This document shows, one piece after another, positions 18,771-19,271 of a stretch of 32,000 nt of DNA. The position numbers were made by a program, and so were the translations under genes. Source of the DNA: Shewanellaceae bacterium UBA2521 (GTDB taxonomy: Bacteria > Pseudomonadota > Gammaproteobacteria > Enterobacterales > Shewanellaceae); contig DDNL01000076.1 of assembly GCA_002341165.1 (NCBI GenBank), forward strand, positions 1-32,000, in the 5' to 3' direction. How positions within the stretch are numbered: position 1 is the stretch's first letter; every line of letters starts with the position of its first letter. The notes below the pieces were generated by a model. The model searched no databases, had not been told where the DNA came from, and saw only the letters and a list, made by a program, of their open reading frames with translations.

Positions 18771-18926
18771 ATGAGAGCTTTACGTTACAAAGAACAAAGA
18801 AATATACATGGTGGGTTAAGCCTCACTGATATAAGAAAATCTCTGACAAAATTTATCCAGTGGGTTAAAGACAGCGATAAGCAAACTAAACAGCGATGGT
18901 TGATTCAACTCACTCCAGCTGTATAG
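18771..18926 (+). CDS. Small peptide with a double-glycine-type leader (51 aa): MRALRYKEQRNIHGG|LSLTDIRKSLTKFIQWVKDSDKQTKQRWLIQLTPAV
   Basis: Not in the ORF track because it is too short. AGGAG lies 5 nt upstream of the ATG. The leader has L at -12, E at -8, I at -4 and GG at -2/-1, as in class II bacteriocin/pheromone leaders. It is a paralogue of the ORF at 19122. Confidence 0.5.
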   Translation: MRALRYKEQRNIHGGLSLTDIRKSLTKFIQWVKDSDKQTKQRWLIQLTPAV

Positions 18927-19121
18927 CGACATGTAGTTTAGGTAAAATCCGTCATCTGCTCCTGTCAAATCAATAAAATATACAATCTGTATCATCGTAT
19001 GTTCAAAAATATGAAAGAAGGATTTGGCGACCAAGCAGCTACAGCATTGTATATTCCCGAAATGCATAACATTGTTTTTGCTAAAAGACATAATATAAAT
19101 AAGTTGAGGATAAATTATTAA

Positions 19122-19271
19122 ATGAAAATATTAAATAAAATAGAATATAAAAAAATTAAAGGTGGTTTTAATTTTATTGATTTAATACTTAAAGGATTCA
19201 AAAATTACGGTGAAATTGTTATCCACTGGAACAAATTAAGAAAGACTCAAGTTATACTCGTACCTCTGTAA
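19122..19271 (+). CDS. Small peptide with a double-glycine-type leader (49 aa): MKILNKIEYKKIKGG|FNFIDLILKGFKNYGEIVIHWNKLRKTQVILVPL
   Basis: Not in the ORF track. GAGGA lies 11 nt upstream. The 15-aa leader has L-12, E-8, Y-7, I-4 and GG. The predicted mature part is cationic and amphipathic, and shares xxxxD at its start and a basic-cluster + hydrophobic-I-x-hydrophobic-P tail with the first peptide. Confidence 0.5.
   Translation: MKILNKIEYKKIKGGFNFIDLILKGFKNYGEIVIHWNKLRKTQVILVPL

Follow-up and report, generated by a model that had tools for sequence, protein, structure and literature searches.

The first 32,000 nucleotides (forward strand) of contig DDNL01000076.1 from Shewanellaceae bacterium UBA2521 (GCA_002341165.1), called the window here, contain two small open reading frames (ORFs) between positions 18,771 and 19,271, referred to as peptides 1 and 2. 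Judged by their sequences and those of their relatives, both are genuine genes for putative peptide precursors with double-glycine leaders, and they appear to be the first and last members of a small array of reshuffled cassettes, between which lies a third gene that had been overlooked in the original prediction. The peptides make up four new families (A to D) within a known kind of secreted peptide. It is favoured, with reasonable rather than high confidence, that the precursors would be cut after Gly-Gly, exported by a C39-type ATP-binding cassette (ABC) transporter encoded elsewhere and released as peptides that act outside the cell, most plausibly in a bacteriocin- or microcin-like way.

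The original prediction described two ORFs of 51 and 49 amino acids (aa) on the same strand, 195 bp apart in AT-rich DNA and each with a ribosome-binding site. Coordinates and Shine-Dalgarno sequences were confirmed (Table 1), as was the base composition, with 30% G+C at the ORFs compared with 39% across the window; the two ORFs also share a reading frame. They are not unannotated, as had been stated, because gene calls for both exist in Tara Oceans, NCBI, JGI and ENA data, where they form singleton clusters with no assigned function. Both 15-residue leaders carry Leu at −12, Glu at −8, Ile at −4 and Gly-Gly at −2/−1, and have the double-glycine consensus that was claimed for them (about 15–18 residues that end in G-[GAS], with −4 and −12 hydrophobic and −8 as a rule Glu). 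Position −7 is Q/Y and not the usual Leu.

These leaders stand far above chance expectation. When all start/ORF combinations of 25–120 aa in the window were scanned with a strict leader regular expression, only peptides 1 and 2 matched among 747 combinations, against a mean of 0.065 matches in first-order Markov shuffles. A pattern for the family, ^M[RKQ].[IL].{7}I.GG, found no match in 1.52 Mb of real control DNA (80 loci from related genomes, 45,334 start/ORF combinations), in which two published microcin-signal patterns gave 5 and 9 matches, all spurious-looking, for a background of about 3e-4 per ORF. The occurrence of the leader motif twice within 350 bp is not due to chance. Class II microcin signals have been printed as M..Rx[IL]x9G[GAS] (Motif 1) and M..[KEQI]x[IL]x9G[GAS] (Motif 2), with signals of 15–18 aa (PMC12219008). 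Peptide 1 matches Motif 1 in the form ^MR.[IL].{9}G[GAS] (pattern from PMC12219008), and peptide 2, like every family leader except that of peptide 1, matches Motif 2 in the form ^M[KEQI].[IL].{9}G[GAS]; both precursors agree with the published combination of class II microcin signal pattern and length (<=150 aa). Weak matches to family members were obtained with the Pfam Bacteriocin_IIc, ComC and EntF models. For the window peptides themselves, nothing was found with Pfam, NCBIfam or PADLOC, and no relative was found by PDB sequence searches or in a scan of viral contigs. A tblastn search of plasmids with three peptides as queries gave no match, and no Rfam family matches the window.

Homologues, for which a search had been proposed in the original prediction, were found for peptide 2 on two contigs (L009 and L010) and for peptide 1 on one (L010). 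Word-index searches with both peptides returned only the queries themselves, and it was an exhaustive HMMER search of 1.84 billion representative proteins that gave P0013, a 49-aa protein 69% identical to peptide 2 (E 2.9e-12). Two other candidates from the searches, P0012 and P0014, were rejected: the first is a long repeat protein whose best stretch spans the artificial junction of the concatenated query and whose score sums 11 repeats, and the second is a long repeat protein matched over 7 stretches. P0013 is encoded at positions 309–458 of L009, a 565-bp Tara contig that is 87% identical, without gaps, to window positions 18969–19377. Positions 105–308 of the same contig hold an intact gene of a further type (C-type), read from an internal start of the ORF that abuts the peptide 2 homologue (TAAATG stop/start overlap). 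Its product is a third 15-residue double-glycine leader peptide, with the leader MQYISKYRQKQIFGG and a mature part (SLINKIRNLY...) beginning SLINKIRNLYRRMFEDLKEGFGDQAATALYIPEMH. At its left end L009 carries the tail of an ORF that matches the B type of L010. A profile search with the C-type family then led to P0017 (67 aa) on L010, a 2.6-kb contig encoding six leader-peptides and one degenerate copy. Metagenomes were scanned twice for the C-type family, once without a match and once with L012, a copy of L010, as the only one.

In shuffle tests restricted to mature parts, peptide 1 is similar to the A-type peptide of L010 (L010_A) and peptide 2 to the D-type peptide (L010_D), each with p <= 0.0005; a ...W..Q.TPAV tail is common to peptide 1 and L010_A. 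The gene order A-(B)-C-D is conserved, with A, a leaderless C and D in the window, B, C and D in L009, which represents a sister lineage, and A, B, C and D plus two more in L010. The original prediction had named as a check whether the ORFs, and not just the DNA, are conserved; it passes this check, since counterpart ORFs that agree in length and in leader position occur in both L009 and L010. The L010 DNA can no longer be aligned with the window, and at approximately 30% identity the precursors are still 51 and 49 aa long. This retention of length, leader position and gene order is, as far as sequence comparison goes, the strongest argument that the ORFs are coding. Peptide 2 and its L009 homologue differ at 22 nucleotides (nt), with no stop codon or frameshift, and the three substitutions in the leader all fall at non-consensus positions (−13, −9 and −5). 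When 22 random substitutions were simulated, ORF length survived in 10.7% of trials, and length together with the leader motif in 2.0%. The alternative frames are full of stop codons. The ratio of nonsynonymous to synonymous change (omega) for this pair is 0.67, an estimate that, like the one given below for the C-type gene, rests on very few substitutions.

The C-type gene between peptides 1 and 2 has lost its 5' end in the window. Its ATG at 18931 is followed immediately by TAG (CAG in L009), a 13-nt deletion is present and the Gly-Gly codons are gone. The coding sequence of the mature part is kept at 18969–19118, where 18 of 150 nt differ from L009 (omega 0.32). The sole remaining start, ATG 18999, would open a 40-aa ORF without a Shine-Dalgarno sequence, and the TAA stop codon of the remnant abuts the ATG of peptide 2. 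Across the C-type family the core GFGDQAATAL[YF]IPEMH is strongly conserved, with 21 invariant columns. In an alignment of the window junction, the loss looks like a deletion running from just past the A-B spacer into the C leader. In L010 (1003–1397), a 186-bp tandem repeat (91% identical) places the same leader, MKVIDQKNLQHIQGG, and its upstream region before the unrelated cores of A and B, and a frameshifted third copy of the repeat lies upstream at about 1003–1140. The repeat and the junction deletion together suggest that cassettes may be shuffled by recombination at the leaders. Three datasets have L010-type contigs, and each of them has window-type contigs too, with nearly identical coverages in ERZ842199 (11.91 and 11.99, respectively). 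This makes it probable that L010 is a further locus of the genome that contains the window.

Table 1. Positions of leader-peptide genes and associated elements in the window and in contig L010
Contig	Feature	Position	Strand	Remarks
Window	Shine-Dalgarno sequence AAAGGAG, peptide 1	18759-18765	+	5-nt spacer to ATG; read from sequence
Window	Peptide 1 (A-type) precursor ORF	18771-18926	+	ATG start, 51 aa
Window	Peptide 1 leader MRALRYKEQRNIHGG	18771-18815	+	15 residues
Window	Peptide 1 predicted mature part LSLTDIRKSLTKFIQWVKDSDKQTKQRWLIQLTPAV	18816-18923	+	36 aa
Window	5'-truncated C-type leader-peptide gene	18931-19121	+	Third family member, between peptides 1 and 2
Window	Shine-Dalgarno sequence GAGGA, peptide 2	19106-19110	+	11-nt spacer to ATG; within 3' end of C-type remnant
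Window	Peptide 2 (D-type) precursor ORF	19122-19271	+	ATG start, 49 aa
Window	Peptide 2 leader MKILNKIEYKKIKGG	19122-19166	+	15 residues
Window	Peptide 2 predicted mature part FNFIDLILKGFKNYGEIVIHWNKLRKTQVILVPL	19167-19268	+	34 aa
Window	Conserved non-coding tail of array	19272-19379	+	86% identical to L009 over 107 nt
Window	Perfect 11-bp inverted repeat, 24-nt loop	ATAGAGAAGAA 19334-19344, TTCTTCTCTAT 19369-19379		Just 3' of peptide 2
L010	Unclassified leader-peptide	366-530		Leader MKQLKKEAMIEIQGG; no relationship detected
L010	Unclassified leader-peptide	741-899	-	Leader MKEIEKNKLHDISGG; no relationship detected
L010	A	1168-1323		MKVIDQKNLQHIQGG then FTSHSIKDIFIAIKDWFKGIKTQPRQKWHFQITPAV, 51 aa; homologue of peptide 1
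L010	B	1354-1509		Leader identical to that of A, core unrelated; matches ORF tail at left end of L009
L010	C (P0017)	1522-1725		MKVLHQQQQQQIVGG then SLFTSIRKFY...GDQAATALFIPEMH...; homologue of window/L009 middle gene
L010	D	1727-1876		GTG start, MKALNSSKMAQIQGG then FNLVEFFMDMFKSYAETTTVIYDQCKLCMIAHPL, 49 aa; homologue of peptide 2

Peptides 1 and 2 had been taken for diverged paralogues. They are not detectably so, because they belong to distinct families, A and D, which have separate counterparts in L010: no BLASTP alignment is obtained at E <= 100, the Smith-Waterman score of the mature parts is 17 (shuffle p = 0.58), and only the leaders are alike. The Pro that had been noted in both C-terminal tails is indeed present. 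In an alignment of window peptides 1 and 2 with L010 A, D, 366-530 and 741-899, a Pro was seen 3–8 residues from the C terminus in 4 of 6 leader-peptide families (TPAV, [VIH]PL, FPSL and TPQSLALS), A and D among them, the cores being otherwise unrelated.

The predicted mature peptides are cationic, amphipathic and Trp-containing, as had been claimed: peptide 1 would have an average mass of 4286.0 Da, a net charge of +4 and a maximum hydrophobic moment of 0.58, and peptide 2 a mass of 4070.9 Da, a charge of +3 and a moment of 0.56. The Trp of peptide 2 is not conserved. Across the family the predicted mature peptides are 34–52 aa long (6.0–6.1 kDa for the C-type), with a Gly+Ser+Ala content of 6–23% and an isoelectric point near 10, except for L010_D (4.75), which is also the only member with Cys. 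All but one are strongly amphipathic, with hydrophobic moments of 0.44–0.71 near the N terminus, and no member has a transmembrane segment. AlphaFold models of the two precursors (mean predicted local distance difference test score, pLDDT, 50.7) give a weak hint of helix at the start of each mature peptide, after an unstructured leader. A net charge of +3 to +5 was counted in favour of secreted membrane-active peptides, and the predicted physicochemistry as a whole fits such peptides.

Under the favoured explanation, the precursors would be unmodified ribosomal products, presumably translated from the ribosome-binding sites that precede each ORF. By analogy with known systems, we infer that the leader would be recognised by the C39 cysteine-peptidase domain of a distant ABC exporter and cut after Gly-Gly, and that export would proceed through a membrane-fusion protein and a TolC-type channel. 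The released amphipathic peptides of 36 aa (4286 Da, +4) and 34 aa (4071 Da, +3) would then act outside the cell, most likely, if speculatively, as bacteriocin- or microcin-like agents against competitors and possibly in combination. An antibacterial role is no more than plausible.

Several observations weigh against this explanation. Contig walking covered about 46 kb in all, between about −9.8 kb and +36 kb relative to the window, and no C39-peptidase ABC exporter, HlyD-type protein or TolC-type protein was found in the Pfam lists for this region. As a candidate immunity gene, no conserved small ORF with a transmembrane-grade hydrophobic stretch adjoins any of the three arrays (window, L009 and L010); the only hydrophobic flanking ORFs are antisense or overlapping and not conserved. 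That neither an exporter nor an immunity gene lies nearby had been stated in the original prediction, and this holds for the window and its flanks. Where microcin immunity genes have been validated, they lie immediately next to the microcin and their products span the membrane (PMC12219008). With masses of 4.1–4.3 kDa and a Gly/Ser/Ala content of 6–11%, the predicted mature peptides of the window are smaller than classical class II microcins and much poorer in these residues. In the proposed check against TIGR01847 (bacteriocin_sig, cut-off 15.7 bits), no match at E <= 10 was reported for the two window leaders; in favour of the family, by contrast, two leaders from L010 match over all 15 positions, that of L010_A with 15.7 bits, exactly at the cut-off, and that of L010_B with 16.3 bits. 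Promoter-like sites in the region occur at chance frequency and none is convincing, and a terminator scan called none on the + strand and none separating the upstream genes from peptide 1. The omega estimates have the narrow basis stated above, and all window-type assemblies are 100% identical and hence offer no population variation. Finally, the window and L010 each contain one decayed cassette, so that the arrays may be eroding.

The main alternative, to which we give only a minor share of our confidence, is that the peptides are exported in the same way and serve a role other than killing, as a cell-cell signal or a component of a biofilm or matrix. Neither array has an immunity gene beside it, a set of different small peptides is retained in constant order, and the conservation of the C-type core described above suggests a specific partner rather than arms-race diversification. 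There are precedents in EbfG1-4 of Synechococcus elongatus, which are co-transcribed and secreted by the C39 transporter PteB (PMC4997328), and in Acinetobacter microcins, which are reported to drive biofilm formation (PMC13188072). The weak matches of the ComC and EntF pheromone models to L010_B point the same way, but they involve L010_B only and fall well below the cut-offs (NF033214, 15.4 against 50 bits; NF033383, 12.4 against 35 bits), and no histidine kinase or response regulator domain is present in the regional Pfam tables. The peptides are also not rich in Gly, Pro and Tyr, unlike the EbfG proteins, and helices that are both cationic and amphipathic are a more typical trait of membrane-active bacteriocins.

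It is also conceivable, and we regard it as rather unlikely, that the unrelated peptides A, B, C and D form, as a fixed set, a single multi-component extracellular system, duplicated and reshuffled by recombination at the leaders, with a distant exporter and no immunity gene. The peptides would then cooperate, either in a membrane-active complex of several peptides or in a module for signalling or biofilm formation, and would not be independent microcins.

That the genes are orphan cassettes, once functional and now unexported and eroding because a matching exporter was lost or never present, is unlikely. Such decay is seen in the C-type gene, with its nonsense codon 2, 13-nt deletion and lost Gly-Gly, and in the degenerate extra copy in L010; the exporter search over about 46 kb was negative, and the omega of 0.67 for peptide 2 is not clearly different from neutral. 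Among Escherichia coli microcin hits, 18% have no exporter in the same assembly (PMC9746304). Peptides 1 and 2, by contrast, have kept start codon, Shine-Dalgarno sequence, full length and every consensus leader position, in a comparison where random mutation at the divergence seen would keep ORF and motif in only about 2% of cases, and their L010 counterparts retain the same lengths at approximately 30% identity. Leader-peptide genes are, moreover, often far from their exporter, as is the case for prochlorosin precursors, which counts against this alternative.

Two further explanations are poorly supported. The original prediction had considered a two-peptide bacteriocin, and a classical class IIb-like pair of diverged paralogues would agree with two genes on the same strand that are adjacent, similar in size and both cationic and amphipathic in product, and with the membership of A and D among the families with a Pro near the C terminus. 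It is very improbable, because the mature regions have no similarity, the two genes are members 1 and 3 of an array of three to four genes with a third gene in between and a fourth type in the L009 and L010 arrays, and no immunity gene is adjacent. In two-peptide class IIb bacteriocins both peptides have GxxxG-type helix-helix motifs, and there is no GxxxG here, mature peptide 1 having no Gly and mature peptide 2 only Gly 10 and Gly 15. Chance ORFs without a product in AT-rich intergenic DNA would be compatible with the weak transcription signals, with downstream non-coding DNA that is about equally conserved (86%) and with the failure of either peptide to match a curated family model, but are made extremely improbable by the motif statistics, the retention of ORF and leader in L009 and L010, the stop-filled other frames, the family members that reach the TIGR01847 cut-off and the lack of an Rfam family at the region.

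Beyond peptide 2, the conserved tail of the array includes an inverted repeat that is kept in L009 but for one uncompensated change in the left arm (Table 1). A hairpin at the transcript end is one possibility, but the repeat is not followed by a U-tract, and when positions 19272–19400 were folded the z-score of −1.89 was marginal compared with shuffles, another AU-rich hairpin being preferred. A sigma-70-like site (19066–19094, 9 of 12 matches) lies upstream of peptide 2, where such sites occur at chance frequency. A perfect TATAAT at 18753–18758 was rejected as a promoter of peptide 1, because a transcript starting after it would lose the Shine-Dalgarno sequence. Co-transcription of the peptides with the upstream gene pair is possible. 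The second peptide array, that of L010, is met at its end by a converging gene for a GNAT acetyltransferase (Acetyltransf_3, 1896–2306, − strand) that has no counterpart in the window.

The upstream pair consists of genes for a 786-aa protein (15408–17768, + strand) that has a signal peptide at its N terminus and lacks any Pfam domain, and for a 257-aa signal-peptide protein (17809–18582, + strand). Residues 129–168 of the former match the translocation-domain region (316–355) of the diphtheria-toxin-like structure 7rb4 (E 0.003), and the latter is weakly like the arginine ADP-ribosyltransferase Vis of Vibrio splendidus (4xzj, E 0.005), keeping YRG and STS-like motifs and having Q-S-D aligned to the catalytic E-x-E of Vis. 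An AlphaFold single-sequence model of the 257-aa protein was unusable (pLDDT 34.5). The two genes may encode a split A/B-type toxin. The peptides had been placed directly downstream of a toxin-like operon; the position is correct, whereas the pair is only weakly toxin-like, and neither of its genes adjoins the peptide array in L010. Further upstream, an AT-rich stretch (14538–15400, 26–31% G+C) forms the left edge of a lineage-specific segment and contains ORFs of 78 and 29 aa, which are called by public gene callers and have no family match.

The remaining neighbours are housekeeping genes of the chromosome (Tus, BCCT, RNase T, MotY, ScpAB and RF3). The gene for Tus (Ter-binding, PF05472; 6628–7491, − strand) puts the region near the replication terminus and, since only a few groups of Gammaproteobacteria possess Tus, narrows down the host. 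On contig L003, at about 8 kb upstream of where the window begins, there is a gene for CvpA (1948–2469, PF02674) beside purF; despite its name ("colicin V production") it was rejected as evidence of microcin export, being part of the ordinary housekeeping cvpA-purF pair. A genome scan with RNase T gave 80 loci at <=70% identity, in which only the adjacency of RNase T and MotY is conserved, so that these loci could not be used to establish synteny of the peptide locus or the borders of an island. A scan with the downstream Gate-domain gene found no relatives. The best RNase T matches among GTDB representatives are scattered over Tolumonas, Vibrio, Pseudaeromonas, Shewanella and Pseudoalteromonas, and at identities of no more than about 70% the host is therefore best placed, by these comparisons, in a lineage of the Vibrio/Aeromonas/Alteromonas radiation that has no representative there and is known from marine metagenomes only. 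Window-type contigs (L001–L008 and L013–L014), assembled independently from two SRA runs and a number of Tara stations, match the window with 100% identity over up to 20 kb, which indicates either that the organism is clonal and widely distributed or that it is a recurrent contaminant of datasets.

Peptides with double-glycine leaders are now believed to be very common among Gram-negative bacteria, with validated examples almost all from gut Enterobacteriaceae. Further such peptides are not surprising in that light, and the present families, from an abundant, clonal, uncultured open-ocean bacterium that belongs to none of the groups examined to date, would extend the class to the pelagic ocean. 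The differences from known examples are that the peptides are short, cationic and amphipathic rather than Gly-rich, that they are arranged, unusually, in reshuffled cassettes with shared leaders, and that neither an immunity gene nor an exporter is linked to them. If active, they would be easy to synthesise (34–36 aa, no Cys) and to assay, and could reveal whether arrays of this kind serve marine plankton as weapons, as signals or as matrix components.

Of the known systems, class II microcins (MccV, MccL and MccN among others, with an expanded set in PMC12219008) have the same 15-residue leader architecture, M-[RK]-x-[IL]-x9-G-G, and the leader of peptide 1 is spaced exactly as the MccV signal, MRTLTLNELDSVSGG. 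They are likewise small, unmodified, ribosomal and gammaproteobacterial, and several may be present per genome. [quoted passage not shown] The peptides have no sequence similarity to any known microcin. They were not filed as class II microcins, because they lack adjacent immunity and a linked exporter, are slightly below the size range and have an activity that is only predicted.

Gram-positive two- and multi-peptide class II loci (plantaricin EF/JK, lactococcin G and pneumococcal blp) resemble the array in their tandem, distinct double-glycine peptides, in mature peptides of 30–40 aa that are cationic, amphipathic, Cys-free and predicted to be helical, and in strain-variable cassette content; the Gram-positive-derived Motif 2 also fits all family leaders but that of peptide 1. 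These loci differ in their Gram-positive hosts and in having GxxxG motifs, an immunity gene, an adjacent ABC transporter with accessory protein, and three-component regulatory genes. The class IIb operon, in which two adjacent peptide genes precede one immunity gene, is not reproduced here, where the C-type remnant intervenes. The ComC/BlpC/EntF pheromones are set apart by their model scores and by an adjacent kinase/regulator pair, neither of which is seen here.

Two Gram-negative systems share other traits with the array. Bacteroidetocins belong to another phylum, need an adjacent PCAT for production and have no sequence similarity to the present peptides, but they too have a 15-residue double-glycine signal that departs from the enterobacterial consensus and are shorter than 100 aa (PMC12219008). 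For EbfG1-4, secretion by PteB and a function in biofilm formation have been demonstrated, and their composition is different, with no sequence similarity. They are, like the peptides described here, different small double-glycine proteins, four in number, that are clustered in a Gram-negative genome with no bacteriocin immunity logic (PMC4997328), and they illustrate that arrays of double-glycine peptides need not be antibiotics.

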